Below are positions 1 to 6,069 of a stretch of DNA of 64,000 nt, piece by piece. Below the pieces are notes generated by a model. That model saw only the letters and a program-made list of their open reading frames with translations, was not told the origin of the DNA and did not search any database. Each line of letters opens with the position of its first letter. Position 1 is the stretch's first letter. The position numbers were made by a program, and so were the translations under genes. Source of the stretch: an uncultured Alphaproteobacteria bacterium (lineage in GTDB: Bacteria > Pseudomonadota > Alphaproteobacteria > RF32 > CAG-239); contig CAJTLY010000002.1 in NCBI GenBank assembly GCA_910577095.1, positions 957 through 64,956 on the forward strand, read 5' to 3'.

Positions 1-2
1 GT

Positions 3-143
3 AAACTAATAGATACCTTTTATATGTGGCTTTATACAGAATTACAAATTTATCATAAAAAGGATTTTGAAGAAAGGGAAAAACTGATTAAAGAGAGTGG
101 TATGGAAATTCCATATATACCCCTTAATCAGCCTATGTCTTAA
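3..143 (+). CDS. 3' end of a CDS cut by the window edge (hypothetical)
   Basis: The frame is open from the edge (KLIDTFYMWLYTELQIYHKKDFEEREKLIKESGMEIPYIPLNQPMS) to TAA at 141-143. No domain recognised. Confidence 0.3.
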   Translation, partial: KLIDTFYMWLYTELQIYHKKDFEEREKLIKESGMEIPYIPLNQPMS

Positions 144-339
144 TAAATTCGTGGCATTTGTTGGGGTGTGGGCTGTAAGGACATTTTCCACCATGGGGCT
201 TTGGGGCTTGTTTACCGCAGTAACGGCAGACATAGCCCTTTTTGTTCAACTGTTCCCTGAGCTTTTTCATCTCCAATCGGAAAACCGCCAACAAATTTGC
301 AAGTTCTATTTTTTCGTTCGGGTCTGTTAATTTTTTCAT
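133..339 (-). CDS. small Cys/His-rich hypothetical protein (68 aa)
   Basis: ATG start. C-terminal CRYCGKQAPKPHGGKCPYSPHPNKCH looks like a zinc-knuckle-type cluster. No family recognised. Confidence 0.45.
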   Translation of the reverse strand: MKKLTDPNEKIELANLLAVFRLEMKKLREQLNKKGYVCRYCGKQAPKPHGGKCPYSPHPNKCHEFIKT

Positions 340-401
340 CGGTAATAAACTCCCTATATTATGTTTTTATACAACTAAATCATTTAACTAATTGTCTGAT
401 T

Positions 402-431
402 TTGCATAATATTTTACTTGCAATTTATAAT
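402..431 (+). promoter_or_regulatory. sigma70-like promoter candidate (TTGCAT-N18-TATAAT)
   Basis: TTGCAT at 402-407 and TATAAT at 426-431. It faces the DUF3768 operon. The AT-rich context makes chance matches likely. Confidence 0.3.
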
Positions 432-640
432 AGAATATGTTATATTTAACCATAATAAAAATTGATTCGATTCGTTTTTATTATAAATCACAAAATATAC
501 GAAACCGTGTACAAAGCTGTTTTTTAGCAAGGGCAGCAAAGGTTTTGTATGTTTGAAAGTGAGGTGTAATAATGTGGCTCTATACTAATGAACTGAAAAT
601 AAGTTGGTTAGAGTCGATTACATCTCAATCCAACAATCGG

Positions 641-671
641 AGCTTCGACCCAGTGTCGAGGCTCTTTTTTT
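641..671 (+). terminator. intrinsic-terminator-like hairpin in the leader just upstream of the DUF3768 domain start
   Basis: GAGCTTCGAC-ccagt-GTCGAGGCTC forms a 10-bp stem with one G.U pair, followed by T7 at 665-671. Confidence 0.5.
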
Positions 672-688
672 ATTTTAAAGGTAAGAAA

Positions 689-1012
689 ATGAATATTGAA
701 AAAATAAGGCAATTAAATGATACGTTTCGCGAGTCATTTAATGGTGGACGGGTAGTTATTACCCCTTGCGTGCAATCACTAACCGATGATGACAGAAAAG
801 AACTTTTGAAACAAGTTCAGGAGTTTGATAATTTTACCGAGGACAACGACCCCTACGGAGAACACGACTTCGGTGCAATAAATTTCAAAAATGATACGTA
901 TTTCTGGAAAATTGACTATTACGACACCGATTATAATTATTTCAGTCCTGACCCCAGCGATTCAAATGTCACAATCAGAGTGCTTACCATAATGCGGGGA
1001 GATGAATATTGA
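689..1012 (+). CDS. DUF3768-family protein
   Basis: NDPYGEHDFG ... YFWKIDYYD ... VTIRVLTIM matches the DUF3768 signature as I remember it. I preferred the ATG at 689. The in-frame ATG at 572, with GAGGTG at 561-566, is an alternative start. Confidence 0.7.
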   Translation: MNIEKIRQLNDTFRESFNGGRVVITPCVQSLTDDDRKELLKQVQEFDNFTEDNDPYGEHDFGAINFKNDTYFWKIDYYDTDYNYFSPDPSDSNVTIRVLTIMRGDEY

Positions 1013-1533
1013 CAGCAGTTATAAATCAGGGATTTACCTATTTATGCGGCTGTTTTGCAAGCGTTATCTCTACAACGAAAGCCATAAATGGAATAAAGCA
1101 CCTCAAAACCGATTACCAAAGGGAACTCCTGCATACCCTTTATGAACATTTAGACAATTGCCGAGAATTGCTTGATGTTCACAAAACAGGCACAACCAAT
1201 GCACAACTAGAAGACTATCTTTTTTGCATTGGTGAAAAGTTAAAGATTGATTTCGGTATATCCATTAAGGTTTCCCGCCCTCTGTTAAGAAAGAAAATAT
1301 CGGTTGATGAAGTGATAAACCAGATTAAACAATACTCGGAAATGCCTGACACTGCCGTTTTAATCGGTCTAGAGGGCAAATATTCACATTGGACAACCGT
1401 TGACAAGGTTAGGAGTTCAATCAAACTCCTTGACAGCGGCAGTATAAAACAAATCCCAATCCGCAACATTCCGCAAATTCACCAAATCAGCAAGAATGAC
1501 GTATATGTTATCAAAGCGAGGGTATGCAAATGA
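1009..1533 (+). CDS. hypothetical protein with a papain-fold (C39-like) Cys-peptidase motif pattern
   Basis: TTG start overlaps the DUF3768 stop by 4 nt, with GGGGAG 8 nt upstream. Q6-x5-C12-G (INQGFTYLCG), then YSHWTTV with an Asp 15 residues later (LLDSG). This is the same Q/C/H/D order and spacing as C39 peptidases. Confidence 0.5.
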   Translation: MTAVINQGFTYLCGCFASVISTTKAINGIKHLKTDYQRELLHTLYEHLDNCRELLDVHKTGTTNAQLEDYLFCIGEKLKIDFGISIKVSRPLLRKKISVDEVINQIKQYSEMPDTAVLIGLEGKYSHWTTVDKVRSSIKLLDSGSIKQIPIRNIPQIHQISKNDVYVIKARVCK

Positions 1534-1677
1534 ATAACAATATACAAACTTATTCATTAAACATTCAACCTATTGAAAATAAACATTTTTCAAGCTGCTA
1601 CAATTCTGCAACATTAAAAATATGCGAATATTTATTTAAATATACAAGAAATTTATTCATTATCGAGGAGATAAAAA

Positions 1678-2256
1678 ATGATAAACCGTGCAATTATTGA
1701 TGACAAAAAACTAAAGCAAATCTTTCAATATATTGAAACCTTACAGAACCACCGACAGATAAAAATGATGTTTCAGCTTAGCTTTATGGGATTACGCTGT
1801 ATAAATTTTTGTTATTTACAAGTCAAAGATATTCAAAATGACGACTTATCCATCAAAAACATCATAGAGCTTTCTGCTAATAAAAACAAAGGTCAGAAAA
1901 AAGCCCGCTACTACTTAAACTCCAAATTACGGTCAGAATTAAAGGAATACATACAATGGCTCTCATCAAAAAAGAAAATCACATTTGACACATATTTATT
2001 TACATCGCAAAAAACAGGAAAGCCCTATCTTAGAAATTCTCTCAGCCGAATTTTCAGTAATATTTATAATATCTTCGGTTTAGAGTGTTCAACGCACTAT
2101 GGACGGCGGCATTTTATCACTGAGAATTTGACTGCTGGGGTTGATATTACGACCGTTAAAACTCTTGTCAACCATAGTAATATCCAAACTATTGCCCTTT
2201 ATTACAATACTAATGATAAGTTACTGAGCAATGTTGTCGAGCGGATAAAAATATAG
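1678..2256 (+). CDS. short tyrosine recombinase (catalytic domain only, 192 aa)
   Basis: GLR ... HYGRRHF ... VNHSNIQTIALYY gives the R, HxxR, H and Y signature. No N-terminal SAM-like domain. GAGGAG RBS. Confidence 0.8.
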   Translation: MINRAIIDDKKLKQIFQYIETLQNHRQIKMMFQLSFMGLRCINFCYLQVKDIQNDDLSIKNIIELSANKNKGQKKARYYLNSKLRSELKEYIQWLSSKKKITFDTYLFTSQKTGKPYLRNSLSRIFSNIYNIFGLECSTHYGRRHFITENLTAGVDITTVKTLVNHSNIQTIALYYNTNDKLLSNVVERIKI

Positions 2257-2285
2257 GCGGTCAGCCGAAACTAACCGCCAAATAA

Positions 2286-3038
2286 TTAATTCCCATTTTC
2301 AATGTCACTAATAATATTGCGTAAAACCTCCTTTCCTTTACCTCCCGCAAAAGCCAAATCGTATATTTTGAAGCGTTTTAGATGAGTGAAGTTTGTATAA
2401 ATTGCCTTATACGTCATACTCGTATTTTTTAGTCCGACGGTTAAATCTCTTCTCGTAAATGTTCTTTTCCCGCCAAATAAGGCTTTAAAGCTGTATTGAA
2501 TAGCAGACTCTAAATCATACTGAGGTCTAACAACGAAAGGTCTGATACGACTTTGAAGAAAGTATTTTTTTATTCGTTTTGATAATTTTGATTTCTCCCA
2601 ACGTGTCAAAGCTCGAAAAAATATTCCGTGAATATGCGGTGTCATCAAAGTACCGTCTTGTTGAAAAGATAGCCGTGGAAATTCATCTAAAGCGACATTG
2701 GCAATATAATCATAACCTTTGAAAATCTTTTTTATTTTCTTCTGAAATGGCTTATATTGAAAATCCCAGTTATTCTGCCCAAAGTTATACTCATCGACAA
2801 CAATCGTAAACATTGAGATATTACTGTTTCCAGTAATTGGTTCTATGTATGAAAAAGCAACGTCTGAAAAGTTTTTAAGAGAAAGAGGTTGCATCATTCC
2901 AAAACCGTTTGGGCGATTAACATATCTTATTGATTGGCATTTACGGTAAACATCCTTAACGTATAAATCGATAGCTCTTGTTACTTTTCTGAGTTGTAAA
3001 TTTGCATTATGTTCAAATTTTTCGGAGAAAGTTTTCAT
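2286..3038 (-). CDS. HUH-endonuclease-like replication initiator/relaxase candidate
   Basis: Three ordered motifs: FTIVVDE (motif I-like), TPHIHGIFF (HUH) and AIQYSFKAL (YxxK). Confidence 0.5.
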   Translation of the reverse strand: MKTFSEKFEHNANLQLRKVTRAIDLYVKDVYRKCQSIRYVNRPNGFGMMQPLSLKNFSDVAFSYIEPITGNSNISMFTIVVDEYNFGQNNWDFQYKPFQKKIKKIFKGYDYIANVALDEFPRLSFQQDGTLMTPHIHGIFFRALTRWEKSKLSKRIKKYFLQSRIRPFVVRPQYDLESAIQYSFKALFGGKRTFTRRDLTVGLKNTSMTYKAIYTNFTHLKRFKIYDLAFAGGKGKEVLRNIISDIENGN

Positions 3039-3116
3039 TTAACATTCCTTTACTTCATTGATTTAACTGCATTATATTTGAGTTATGTTTGTATACATAT
3101 ATTTGCAGTTTTCACT

Positions 3117-3168
3117 AAAAACGTTGTAATACAACGTTTTGAAAAATAGGAGGAAGCCTTGGGCTTCC
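3117..3168 (-). terminator. two tandem hairpins with T-runs downstream of the acidic-protein gene and upstream of the Rep-like gene
   Basis: GGAAGCC-ttg-GGCTTCC (3152-3168) and ACGTTGTA-at-ACAACGT (3121-3137). Each is followed by a T-run on the minus strand. Confidence 0.45.
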
Positions 3169-3177
3169 CCCAAAGTT

Positions 3178-3915
3178 TTACAATTTCTTAAATTTGGATA
3201 CACTAAGCTTTTGGAGTAAAAAAATATCTGTGCTTTTGTACACATTATTCCCGTTTACCCAAATAACATAATTTTTATCCTTGATGTTATTCGACTGAAA
3301 GAATTTGACGGTTTTATCTCCCAAAGACTGTTTTTGATATTCGGAAGCCGACGTCTTGGCATCAGCATTATTATTGTCATCCTCGGCAATATCATCATCT
3401 GCCTCATCTTCATCCTCATCGTCTTCTTCAGTATTTTCGTCATCATCCCCAAAGGGCAGCTCAGGCTGTTTGTCATCTTCATCGTCATTATCTTCTTCAT
3501 TTTCCCCTGTATCGTTTTGATTGCTTAAGCGAAAATTAGCAAAATAATCAATTCCATATTGACTTAAGTTTTTTTCAGCCGTGTCCAAATCAAAGCTCAA
3601 ACTGTCAAACCGTTTCAAAACCCTAACATACGTTCTGATTCTTGCTTTAACACGTTCGTCATTGCATTTATCAGATACCCCTAGTGCTAGCATTAAAATC
3701 ATTTTCATCGGTTTTTTCACCTTGTATTTAATACCTGCCTTTGTACATCTTTTTTTGATTAGCTTCGGGTTGTAATGAAGATAAATGTCATAACAACCAA
3801 GAATAGCTTTTTGTATATGTTTTCGTCCTTTTAACTCAATTTTATCAAAAGCTTCAAAAGCCTTTTTAATATTTGTGAACTTTTCTTTGAGTTCTTCTTT
3901 AGTAAATTCTGTCAT
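3178..3915 (-). CDS. hyper-acidic hypothetical protein
   Basis: ATG at 3915 has a GGGAGA RBS, and ATG at 3945 is also possible. It has a central run of about 50 residues that is almost entirely D/E/N (ENEEDNDDEDDKQPELPFGDDDENTEEDDEDEDEADDDIAEDDNNN). Confidence 0.6.
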   Translation of the reverse strand: MTEFTKEELKEKFTNIKKAFEAFDKIELKGRKHIQKAILGCYDIYLHYNPKLIKKRCTKAGIKYKVKKPMKMILMLALGVSDKCNDERVKARIRTYVRVLKRFDSLSFDLDTAEKNLSQYGIDYFANFRLSNQNDTGENEEDNDDEDDKQPELPFGDDDENTEEDDEDEDEADDDIAEDDNNNADAKTSASEYQKQSLGDKTVKFFQSNNIKDKNYVIWVNGNNVYKSTDIFLLQKLSVSKFKKL

Positions 3916-4313
3916 CAGAATTCTCCCTATTTTCTTTATCCGCATAGTAGAGAGTGAGGTAAAGTTTTAATAAACGGTCATAGATAGCCAGAGCTTCGTC
4001 GTCAGACAAAACTTCATTAGGATACCACGATTTTATTATATCAACTTTTTTCATCTCTACCATTTAGACAAAATTAAAACACAGTCGCTTGACTGGAAAG
4101 ACAACTCATTTGCCTTACAAGATGAACACTAAATTAAACATTATTAGCTGAAAACTTGTTTGTTTCCAACGATTTTACCTGATTATTAGAATTATCTAAC
4201 GATATTAAAACAATTATTGAATAAATCTTATAATCATTATTAGAAACAAATAAATTGCTTGTTTTGTCTAAAATTGCATAATATTATTGTTTTTAACAAT
4301 TGGAGTTTTGAAA

Positions 4314-5921
4314 ATGATAACAGCGGCTATCCTATGTCGAAGGGTTTCGACGGTTATGCAAGAGCGCGAAGGAACATCCCTTCTGAATCAGTTAGAAATA
4401 CTGACAGAATATTGTCAAAGAAAGGGGCTGACTATAATTAAAGATGCAGAAATAGTTGAAAGCAGCACCAAAGGGGAACGCAAAAAATTTATGGAAGTAA
4501 TAAAATTCTGCCAACAACAACGTGGTGGTGTTGCTTTGGTATGTTTGAAGACTGACAGACTGTTTCGCAACTTTAAGAATTACACAATGATTGATGAAAT
4601 GCGAAAAAGCGGGCAGCTTGAACTTCATCTAATCCAAGAAAATTTGATACTGAATAAAGATTCTAAAGCCGGAGACTTAACCATACTCGGTTTAAATGTC
4701 GTTATGGCTCAAAACTATGCACTTAGTCTACGAGATAATGTAGTCTATGGGATGGACTACTCAGTCAATCAAGGACGGTGTATGTCGAAAGCTCCGGCGG
4801 GCTATTTAAATATAAGGACATCAGACGGGAAAGCCGCCGTCATTATCGATGACGAACGGGCACCGATTATTCAGAAGCTTTTTGAACAATATGCAACGGG
4901 GCTTTATTCGGTTAAGGATATGATGAAAAAATGTAAAGAATGGGGGCTTATCAGCCGTTTTTCAGGAAAGCCGTTTGATACAAGTACGATTCACCGCATA
5001 CTAAACAACAGATTTTACATTGGGGAAATGTTATATAAAAACCAGTGGTACAAACATAATTACGAAACTTTAATCGCTCCCGCTCTGTTTAAAACGTGTC
5101 AGGACATTATGCACGGTCGTAAACCGGAAGAACCAAAACATTTCAAAACCACCGAAAAGCCCTTTATTTTTCGGGGATTAATAACTTGCGGAGAATGTGG
5201 TTGTATGATTAGTAGTGACCGTAAAATAAAACCCAGCGGCAAAGAATACGTTTACCTCAAATGTTCGCATTTCAAAGGGAACTGCAAAAATCCGCAGGTT
5301 AACGAAAATGTCGTTTTGAAACAAATCGAAGACGAATTGAAAAACTTGTCCGCACCGCAAGAGATAATGAGCTATCTCAGGTCAGATATGGAGAAAATTA
5401 TAAACCGACAGAATGAAATTCATAACCGAGAAGTAAAAGCCATTCGCAAGAAATACGATGACTGTCAGGAACAAATTAAATACTTGCGGTCACTACTGCT
5501 TAAAAAGGAAATTACACCGGAAGAATACCGTGATATGAATGAAGACCTCAAAAAAGAACAATACGAACTCGAGGGAAAGTCGGAACTGCTGACCGAAGCC
5601 GATGAAAAATTTTCAATCGCAGTCGCCACCATACTTTCCTTGGGTAATAATGCGTACCAAATCTTCCAGAGTTCGAAAGTAGAAACAAAAAGAGAGATTT
5701 TACACATCTTACTTTCGAACTTGAAATTGCAAGACCGCAAAATCTCTTATACCCTTAGAAAACCTTACGATTACATCAGGTCTTTAAACAAAAAAACACC
5801 CTCCAAATCGGAAGGTGTTGCAATTGGTGATCCCAACGAGGTTCGAACTCGTGTTACCGCCGTGAGAGGGCGATGTCCTAGACCACTAGACGATGGGACC
5901 GTGTTTTGTTTGTGCTTTTAA
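4314..5921 (+). CDS. large serine recombinase (integrase)
   Basis: Resolvase core (RRVSTVMQ..S..NQ), recombinase domain, zinc ribbon (CGECGCMISS...LKCSHFKGNC) and a coiled-coil tail. GGAG RBS before the ATG at 4314. The 3' end overlaps tRNA-Glu antisense. Confidence 0.9.
   Translation: MITAAILCRRVSTVMQEREGTSLLNQLEILTEYCQRKGLTIIKDAEIVESSTKGERKKFMEVIKFCQQQRGGVALVCLKTDRLFRNFKNYTMIDEMRKSGQLELHLIQENLILNKDSKAGDLTILGLNVVMAQNYALSLRDNVVYGMDYSVNQGRCMSKAPAGYLNIRTSDGKAAVIIDDERAPIIQKLFEQYATGLYSVKDMMKKCKEWGLISRFSGKPFDTSTIHRILNNRFYIGEMLYKNQWYKHNYETLIAPALFKTCQDIMHGRKPEEPKHFKTTEKPFIFRGLITCGECGCMISSDRKIKPSGKEYVYLKCSHFKGNCKNPQVNENVVLKQIEDELKNLSAPQEIMSYLRSDMEKIINRQNEIHNREVKAIRKKYDDCQEQIKYLRSLLLKKEITPEEYRDMNEDLKKEQYELEGKSELLTEADEKFSIAVATILSLGNNAYQIFQSSKVETKREILHILLSNLKLQDRKISYTLRKPYDYIRSLNKKTPSKSEGVAIGDPNEVRTRVTAVRGRCPRPLDDGTVFCLCF
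5790..5819 (-). terminator. intrinsic terminator of tRNA-Glu
   Basis: AACACCTTCC-gattt-GGAGGGTGTT hairpin followed by T7 on the minus strand, directly 3' of the tRNA. Confidence 0.6.
5825..5900 (-). tRNA. tRNA-Glu (anticodon CUC), CCA encoded
   Basis: GGTCCCATCGTCTAGTGGTCTAGGACATCGCCCTCTCACGGCGGTAACACGAGTTCGAACCTCGTTGGGATCACCA. The cloverleaf folds by hand, the anticodon loop is CTCTCAC, and it closely resembles E. coli tRNA-Glu. Confidence 0.9.
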
Positions 5922-6069
5922 CCCATATTTTCGTTTTTGGCAAGCTTTTTTATTAAATTTGCATCACTATCGGCAAAAGATTTTAATCAAAAACCTCTTT
6001 CTACAGCAACATGGCAACCCTTCAAACATTCGCCGCAGCCTTATCCGCCCTGCCGAGACAACGGCATGA

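Follow-up and report, generated by a model that had tools for sequence, protein, structure and literature searches.

Here we analyze a window of 64,000 nucleotides (the whole stretch of DNA under study, from contig CAJTLY010000002.1 of an uncultured Alphaproteobacteria bacterium), in which the open reading frame (ORF) of a serine integrase runs antisense through a tRNA-Glu(CUC) gene. Our reading, to which we give a probability of about 85%, is that a large serine recombinase (LSR) has placed a 14-kb island at the very 3′ end of this tRNA gene, using an attachment site (attP) that lies within the integrase's own reading frame. The left half of attP (the P arm) would be integrase codons ~494–505, and the right half (the P′ arm) would be the other end of the element, with crossover occurring within the sequence TTGGTGA, probably at the GA that opens codon 506. 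Integration would swap a P′-encoded helical peptide of 36–53 amino acids (DSSATNFELWLTREYYQATMETYQLAKVFLQNNQEY...) for an antisense reading of the tRNA, and excision would bring back the P′-encoded tail. The island would also supply a replacement terminator hairpin for the tRNA, placed antisense in integrase codons 494–503. We infer that the integrase in the window itself catalyzed the insertion. The anatomy, both junctions, the family-wide tail swapping, the register shift of the half-sites, the covariation in the hairpin and the selection on the P′ tails were all computed here. The main features are summarized in Table 1.

Table 1. Positions of the integrase, tRNA gene and attachment-site features in the window.
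Feature	Position	Strand	Basis or remark
Large serine recombinase (integrase) ORF, 535 amino acids	4314–5921	+	folded part ends near residue 493
Right-hand 5.8 kb of the 14.08-kb integrative element	1–5823	+	continues to window −8259 (L143:1170)
P arm of attachment site; also a predicted intrinsic terminator serving the tRNA, written over integrase codons 494–503	5788–5823	−	hairpin 5795–5819 plus T-run
TTGCAA motif	5818–5823	none	−11 to −6 from proposed GA; mirrored at +6 to +11 in type-1 P′ arms
Common core TTGGTGA	5824–5830	none	invariant in 28 junctions; repeated at left end of element
Intact tRNA-Glu(CUC), 3′ end toward the element	5825–5900	−	ARAGORN; Rfam RF00005, 57.5 bits
Host-specified integrase tail, codons 506–535 (DPNEVRTRVTAVRGRCPRPLDDGTVFCLCF) and stop	5829–5921	+	translation
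B′ half-site (antisense acceptor stem and T arm of tRNA)	5831–5853	none	CGAAC at +14 to +18 (5844–5848)

The integrase ORF starts with an ATG at 4314, which has GGAG 8 nt to its 5′ side (there is an alternative TTG at 4287), and it ends with a stop codon at 5919–5921. The translation agrees with the preliminary description of the sequence, according to which the frame has no stop before the junction of element and host, and the minus-strand placement of the tRNA by ARAGORN agrees with its claim that the frame passes antisense through the entire gene. The protein has Pfam matches to Resolvase (PF00239, the N-terminal catalytic domain, residues 6–155, E = 4e-15), Recombinase (PF07508, residues 181–268) and Zn_ribbon_recom (PF13408, residues 285–343), and R10-V11-S12 is almost invariant across 54 integrase homologs. 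A search of the PDB with the single sequence gave no match; profile searches with the integrase family matched the catalytic domain of TP901-1 (7e-16) and the C-terminal domain of the A118/LI integrase (2.5e-10), with homology ending at about position 482. We modeled the structure with AlphaFold2 (AF2) from an alignment of the 54 homologs, obtaining a mean predicted local distance difference test (pLDDT) score of 80.5. The model has a long antiparallel coiled coil at residues 349–453 (helices 349–396 and 402–453), and its best matches in Foldseek are the SPbeta, Bxb1, PhiC31 and LI integrases (E = 1e-13 to 3e-20). By its domains and predicted fold the ORF is therefore a large serine recombinase. 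The last folded element in the model is the helix 485–493. Residues 496–535 have pLDDT values of 28–37 and no secondary structure, and are predicted to be disordered. The folded domains (residues 1–493) all lie on one side of the crossover in the model.

The tRNA gene encodes its own CCA (5825–5827), and the TTGGTGA core covers tRNA nucleotides 71–76 (TCACCA) plus one base. The integrase frame reads over the core as ...GCA ATT GGT GA|x, with divergence beginning directly after the GA, and codon 506 specifies Asp or Glu in every homolog. The tRNA is unharmed by the insertion, its last six nucleotides being supplied by the 7-bp core. The G+C content is 0.30–0.40 within the element part and 0.45–0.55 in the host flank. 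The boundary had been placed near 5790 in the preliminary description, with the last ~40 codons assigned to the tRNA locus. The junction is instead the core at the CCA end of the tRNA, and only the last 30 codons (506–535, from 5829) are specified by the host. Codons 494–505, which include the hairpin, belong to the element because they are found together with the integrase at other tRNA genes.

Comparison with related integrases shows the same arrangement across the family. About 50 close homologs with 70–97% identity agree at their C-terminal end as far as ...SLNKKxPSKxEG[IV]AIG, beyond which their tails sort into 16 classes, 2–80 amino acids long. At the DNA level we compared 28 junctions from gut and rumen alphaproteobacterial genomes and metagenomes, representing more than 10 species. 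All 28 share an A-run, the hairpin and the invariant TTGGTGA, and then differ. The partner is tRNA-Glu(CUC) in the window and in L006, L007, L012, L014 and L026, tRNA-Glu(UUC) in L008, L009, L011, L016, L018 and L019, and tRNA-Lys(UUU) in L020 and L025; the remaining partners are non-tRNA sequences, including the P′ arms (left ends) of neighboring elements. TTGGTGA is the sole sequence common to all junction types (P-O-B′, B-O-P′ and P-O-P′). In a related strain (L078/L113) the same tRNA and 1.1 kb of the right flank are present with 90.6% identity, and the sequences diverge directly to the left of TTGGTGA. The earlier suggestion of an attachment site within the 3′ end of the integrase gene is supported by the presence of both cores and by the change of tail after TTGGTGA across the family. 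The suggestion that the recombination partner sets the C-terminus of the enzyme gains support from the 16 tail classes, which include tails read from three tRNAs and from P′ arms. One tail (ERNEKK...) was considered as a known RNA or tRNA, but ARAGORN and Rfam found nothing there, and the P′ arm of a neighboring element is the best interpretation.

The left end of the element lies outside the window, within which no duplicated tRNA segment is found. The window maps exactly 1:1 onto contig ERR3199555_294 (locus L143), such that window position N corresponds to L143 position N + 9429. The second junction, which had been expected to the left of the window, is present on this contig as TTGGTGA at L143:1163–1169 (window −8266), 14.08 kb from the right core, and is followed by a type-1 P′ arm (cagttctgcaacgaatttcgaactttgg...). 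A duplicated 3′ segment of tRNA-Glu had also been anticipated there, but the direct repeat bounding the element is only 7 bp in length. Related elements have this type-1 P′ arm as their left end at L001:1867 and L019:469, and the L021 tandem array has it after an integrase remnant. Further left junctions were found at L001:1860, L018:8835 and L019:462. Joining the ends of the window's element gives an integrase with the attP-form tail DSSATNFELWLTREYYQATMETYQLAKVFLQNNQEYQHLCQPRNLPFSSNLHL (from L143:1170 onward). A left-truncated element of ~6.4 kb, considered from L022/L024, was ruled out since L140–142 have the autotransporter gene inside the element and L143 has the true left end.

The half-sites have the architecture of LSR attachment sites. 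The positions of TTGCAA were read directly from the window, L001, L143 and L019. Since this motif is symmetric about GA in the type-1 attP, GA (5829–5830, the first two bases of codon 506) is probably the crossover dinucleotide. A second motif, CGAAC, lies at +14 to +18 from the GA in the arms from tRNA-Glu(CUC), tRNA-Glu(UUC) and tRNA-Lys, but at +19 to +23 in the P′ arms of types 1, 2 and P0029, i.e. 5 bp further out. Location of the motif for the zinc-ribbon domain (DBD2) 4–5 bp further out in attP than in attB is the accepted discriminator of LSR sites (bioRxiv 10.1101/2025.01.03.631226), and the shift between the tRNA and P′ arms matches this signature at the level of sequence. As is usual for LSRs, the sites are short and share few base pairs around the central dinucleotide, here the 7-bp core. 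The crossover falls within the integrase ORF, as in the Mx8 type of system, with codon 506 spanning it. It appears from the position of these motifs that the enzyme recognizes the conserved T arm and acceptor end of tRNA genes. This would explain the occurrence of near-identical integrases at tRNA-Glu(CUC), tRNA-Glu(UUC) and tRNA-Lys(UUU), and the tandem pile-up of elements there.

More distant homologs (29–43% identity) show signs of the same overlap. The C-termini of 20 out of 67 are W-x(3–5)-DSN-type peptides, which correspond to the antisense T arm with the CCA read as TGG, a Trp codon. We checked two of these LSRs, with 33–37% identity to the integrase in the window, at the DNA level. P0056 overlaps tRNA-Pro(CGG) antisense (L150:2847–2923), and P0075 overlaps tRNA-Ser(GCU) antisense (L151:5531–5622). 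Judged from these sequences, an LSR gene overlapping an antisense tRNA is a property of a clade. Reading through the whole tRNA is not itself a selected feature; at tRNA-Glu(UUC) the integrase frame stops after 14–19 codons, within the tRNA.

The P arm contains the only strong terminator-like site detected by a terminator scan between 4000 and 6600, comprising the hairpin and T-run on the minus strand. The preliminary description had called this hairpin the tRNA terminator. It is indeed terminator-like on the tRNA strand, but it is not host DNA and travels with the integrase. Three variants of the hairpin occur, each forming a perfect stem of 10–11 bp in the minus-strand RNA (−14 to −17 kcal/mol) and each having a C·A mismatch on the plus strand. 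Across 14 P arms, pairing on the tRNA strand holds in 140 of 140 cells, with double compensatory changes at two positions. Thirteen cells are G·U, which is tolerable only on the tRNA strand. In ordinary tRNA-Glu genes of unrelated bacteria (for example L039, L104 and L109) the native terminator abuts the CCA at the same position. The comparison indicates that the element displaces the native terminator and brings its own predicted replacement for the tRNA. The hairpin stretch would then have three roles, as protein-coding sequence, as half of an attachment site and as an RNA terminator on the opposite strand. L024, from the species and locus of the window, has an integrase region that is 99.8% identical, yet at reverse-complement position 5953 it has another variant of the hairpin (ATACCCTCA...TGAGGGTAT, compared with ACACCCTCC...GGAAGGTGT in the window), a local patch exchange limited to the attachment-site arm. 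In L150 and L151 there is no terminator hairpin before the tRNA.

We regard the geometry, with attP inside the integrase frame, as established from the sequence comparisons; a functional role for the tail swap is plausible but unproven. Selection on the P′-encoded tail was examined using four type-1 sequences (L143, L021, L019 and L132) over 35 codons. The integrase frame is the only one open in all four, and it has a ratio of nonsynonymous to synonymous differences (pN/pS) of 0.05–0.33, compared with 0.4–2.8 in the other frames (Fisher p = 3e-5 to 1e-2). The differences cluster at third codon positions (for example 6/5/15), and do so also past the first 27 nt. By this sequence test the type-1 tail is under purifying selection in the integrase frame. 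AF2 predicts ~30 helical residues in this tail, with pLDDT ~75. The selection on the P′ tail, and the prediction of a helical tail in place of a disordered one, are hints that the exchange may affect the activity of the enzyme. The swap might then act as a built-in state sensor of the integrase. In the excised form the helical tail of ~36–53 amino acids would tune the coiled coil or the control of directionality, like a directionality factor or anti-factor supplied in cis. On integration this would be replaced by a disordered tRNA-antisense peptide, and the reaction that the enzyme prefers would change with no need for a further regulator. In a wider view, an entire clade of LSRs may be dedicated to the conserved 3′ ends of tRNA genes, with the T arm read in two registers. 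We put this forward tentatively, and consider it rather unlikely in its full form.

A rival explanation keeps the geometry but takes the tails as a neutral by-product: the functional part of the enzyme would end at about residue 493, a stretch constrained as terminator and attachment site would have no room for a stop codon, and translation would continue into whatever lies beyond, every tail being tolerated junk. The end of the folded part at helix 485–493, the disorder predicted thereafter and the limit of the homology profile to the LI integrase at about position 482 are all consistent with this. Moreover, integrases that are at least 85% identical have tails ranging from 2 to 80 amino acids, including GDA*, and a second long type of tail (ERNEKK..., L001 compared with L149) has a pN/pS of 0.63, i.e. 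weak constraint. Purifying selection confined to the integrase frame in the type-1 P′ tails is not expected of junk, nor is their predicted helix, and in SPbeta the integrase C-terminus contacts the directionality factor (bioRxiv 10.1101/2025.01.03.631226). We regard neutrality as a serious possibility, though it falls short of even odds.

Two other explanations address the insertion itself. The integrase copy in the window could have lost its stop codon by accident and now read native host DNA, with no link to an attachment site. The window alone would be compatible with this, as a random stretch of 30 codons stays open with a chance of ~(61/64)^30 = 0.24, or about one in four. Yet a stop before the core occurs in none of the 28 junctions, which exceeds chance. 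One and the same P arm is joined to three tRNAs and to a number of P′ arms, and distant relatives are similarly placed at tRNA-Pro and tRNA-Ser. The comparative sequences already contradict such an accident, and we give it almost no weight. Alternatively, the 192-amino-acid tyrosine-recombinase-like protein encoded at 1678–2256 might mediate insertion at the tRNA, in the manner of classical tRNA islands, with the LSR having another role. Tyrosine integrases classically target tRNA genes (PMC4383910), and the element does encode a Phage_integrase domain. But that protein is a bare catalytic domain, and a small serine resolvase occupies the same position elsewhere. The flanking repeat is 7 bp rather than a tRNA fragment of at least 15 bp, the LSR gene spans the junction at every locus, and the register shift of the half-sites is specific to LSRs. 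A role for the tyrosine-type protein in the insertion is thus very improbable, though a shade less so than an accidental loss of the stop.

A number of observations weigh against LSR-mediated insertion with an attP inside the integrase frame, or against a function for the exchanged tail. No empty attB was found at the locus of the window, all 23 contigs read for this species being occupied, and the closest related locus (L078/L113) holds a different element. Apparent empty sites with convergent tRNAs in a metagenome scan were rejected, since ARAGORN supports no second tRNA in them. No circular form was seen; P-O-P′ junctions were found only inside long chromosomal contigs, presumably in tandem arrays. 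Searches of viral collections with the attP pattern and with the protein sequence of the integrase yielded nothing of use, and no recombination directionality factor was identified. Directly before the left core in L143 lies a 55-bp remnant of the 3′ end of another integrase, left by an older element, rather than the native sequence downstream of the tRNA. Because the left flank is such a remnant, the original insertion cannot be reconstructed exactly. As for the tail, the P′ tails of close relatives vary widely in length (2, 10, 17, 22, 41 and 42–53 amino acids), the selection test covers only four sequences of 35 codons, and the predicted helix lacks alignment support in the tail columns. 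The weak constraint on the second long tail type points the same way.

The gene order of the element from left to right is a Dam-type methylase, an 889-amino-acid autotransporter, a DUF3768 protein, the small tyrosine-recombinase-like protein, two proteins of ~250 amino acids, and the integrase. The autotransporter gene (L143:6101–8770, window approximately −3328 to −659) has versions of 768–921 amino acids in L140 and L144, and is unusual cargo for a small integrative element. The tyrosine-recombinase-like protein is encoded on the plus strand. In other copies its slot contains a serine resolvase of 180–182 amino acids with Resolvase and HTH_7 domains (L021:16311–16853, L025:7423–7971, L026:6353–6895 and L140:7461–8009). 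It looks as if an accessory recombinase, which may serve to resolve dimers, is exchanged as a cassette. A 255-amino-acid protein (3178–3945, minus strand) has a highly acidic center rich in Asp and Glu, encoded by 12-nt periodic repeats (3392–3499). It has no Pfam family, and every copy of the element conserves its gene beside the integrase.

A second TTGGTGA is found inside the element at 1229–1235, preceded by TTTTTTGCA, within an ORF of 174 amino acids (peptide ...FCIGEK...). It resembles the core with its left context and is kept in other copies (L001:6924, L006:6923 and L025:7003); from its sequence it may be a chance occurrence or a secondary site. Variable defense-like cargo adjoins the P′ arms (L001:11842–18000, L139–L142:11750–21600 and L144:2493–4724). 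The sets include HATPase_c_3 with Dcm and Vsr; an SNF2 helicase with Abi_C and an N6_N4 methylase; DUF3800; and an OLD-family TOPRIM/AAA nuclease. From these arrangements the elements would seem to be exchangeable cargo carriers, stacked in tandem at tRNA genes.

A second conserved arm of ~150 nt (...ttcgaactcgctgaaagccttggaaaataaagaaaaa followed by a variable hairpin and ttgca) borders the same TTGGTGA/tRNA-Glu junction in dozens of contigs from gut metagenomes, lying to the left of the core in L029, L037, L038, L045, L050, L064, L065, L078, L102, L113 and many others. These include the homologous locus in the related strain, and no integrase ORF reads into this arm. Most matches in the metagenome scan were of this kind. 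A second integrase family for the arm was considered and rejected, the in-frame upstream ORF being at most 80 codons with no adjacent integrase. Its neighbors in L102 are Fic, rolling-circle Rep, MT-A70 and Dcm genes, and the left border of the L019 array is made of this arm as well. In L051, L088, L027, L087, L099 and L017 a palindromic arrangement of TCACCAAT, a bidirectional terminator and ATTGGTGA lies to the left of the core. These arrangements carry an inverted, decayed tRNA-like fragment to the left of tRNA-Glu, and in L017 and L099 an integrase remnant and a short tRNA fragment lie ~120–230 nt upstream of the intact tRNA.

For the insertion of large DNA segments, serine integrases are the enzymes mainly used, and the way in which they choose a direction is under active structural study. 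A natural clade targeting the conserved 3′ end of tRNAs, and a gene spanning its own crossover site, would both be new to the LSR repertoire. If the exchanged tail does affect activity, this would be a recombinase whose reaction rewrites its own regulatory domain. In the literature we found no description of a serine integrase that targets a tRNA or whose coding sequence contains attP, although large-scale catalogs may hold an earlier notice. A 2017 review describes serine-recombinase sites within genes (PMC5704250), the word tRNA is absent from the main text of a large LSR survey (PMC10083194), and a study of Prochlorococcus reports LSRs in 27 of 937 elements, with no further detail.

The integrase in the window has the domain order, fold, short attachment sites of low identity and DBD2 shift of the canonical LSRs (PhiC31, Bxb1, SPbeta, A118/LI and TP901-1). 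In the position of its attachment site it resembles the integrase IntP of phage Mx8, with which it had been compared in the preliminary description. The target of Mx8 is a tRNA-Asp gene. In Mx8, attP is part of the 3′ coding region of the integrase gene; integration yields a recombinant gene whose 3′ end is new, and the enzyme is not inactivated (PMC6070905, PMC4383910). The comparison holds for the geometry, with attP inside the gene and the C-terminus changed on integration, but not for the class of enzyme. IntP is a tyrosine recombinase with a longer segment of identity, whereas the window has an LSR with a 7-bp core. In addition, unlike Mx8, the element supplies a tRNA terminator and uses at least three tRNA species.

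The known integrase genes that reach across attP are those of Mx8 and of the SSV type, the latter likewise encoding tyrosine recombinases (PMC4383910, PMC6070905, PMC8371274). In the "suicidal" SSV type, found in archaeal viruses and plasmids, integration splits and inactivates the gene. By contrast the integrase in the window exchanges only its unstructured or accessory last 30–53 codons, leaving the folded domains intact. The island is similar to Islander-type tRNA islands in its insertion at the tRNA 3′ end, restoration of the gene, tandem accretion, and defense-like and other cargo. But those islands have a tyrosine integrase and a displaced tRNA fragment as direct repeat, where this element has an LSR and a 7-bp repeat. 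Islands of the present type would be missed by methods that detect displaced tRNA fragments, because the repeat is so short. Lastly, in the "toggle" of SPbeta the extreme C-terminus of the integrase repositions to contact the directionality factor, which shows that the tail of an LSR can matter for direction. The SPbeta tail is constant and its factor is a separate protein, whereas here the tail itself is exchanged by recombination. That the two are functionally linked is speculation by analogy.

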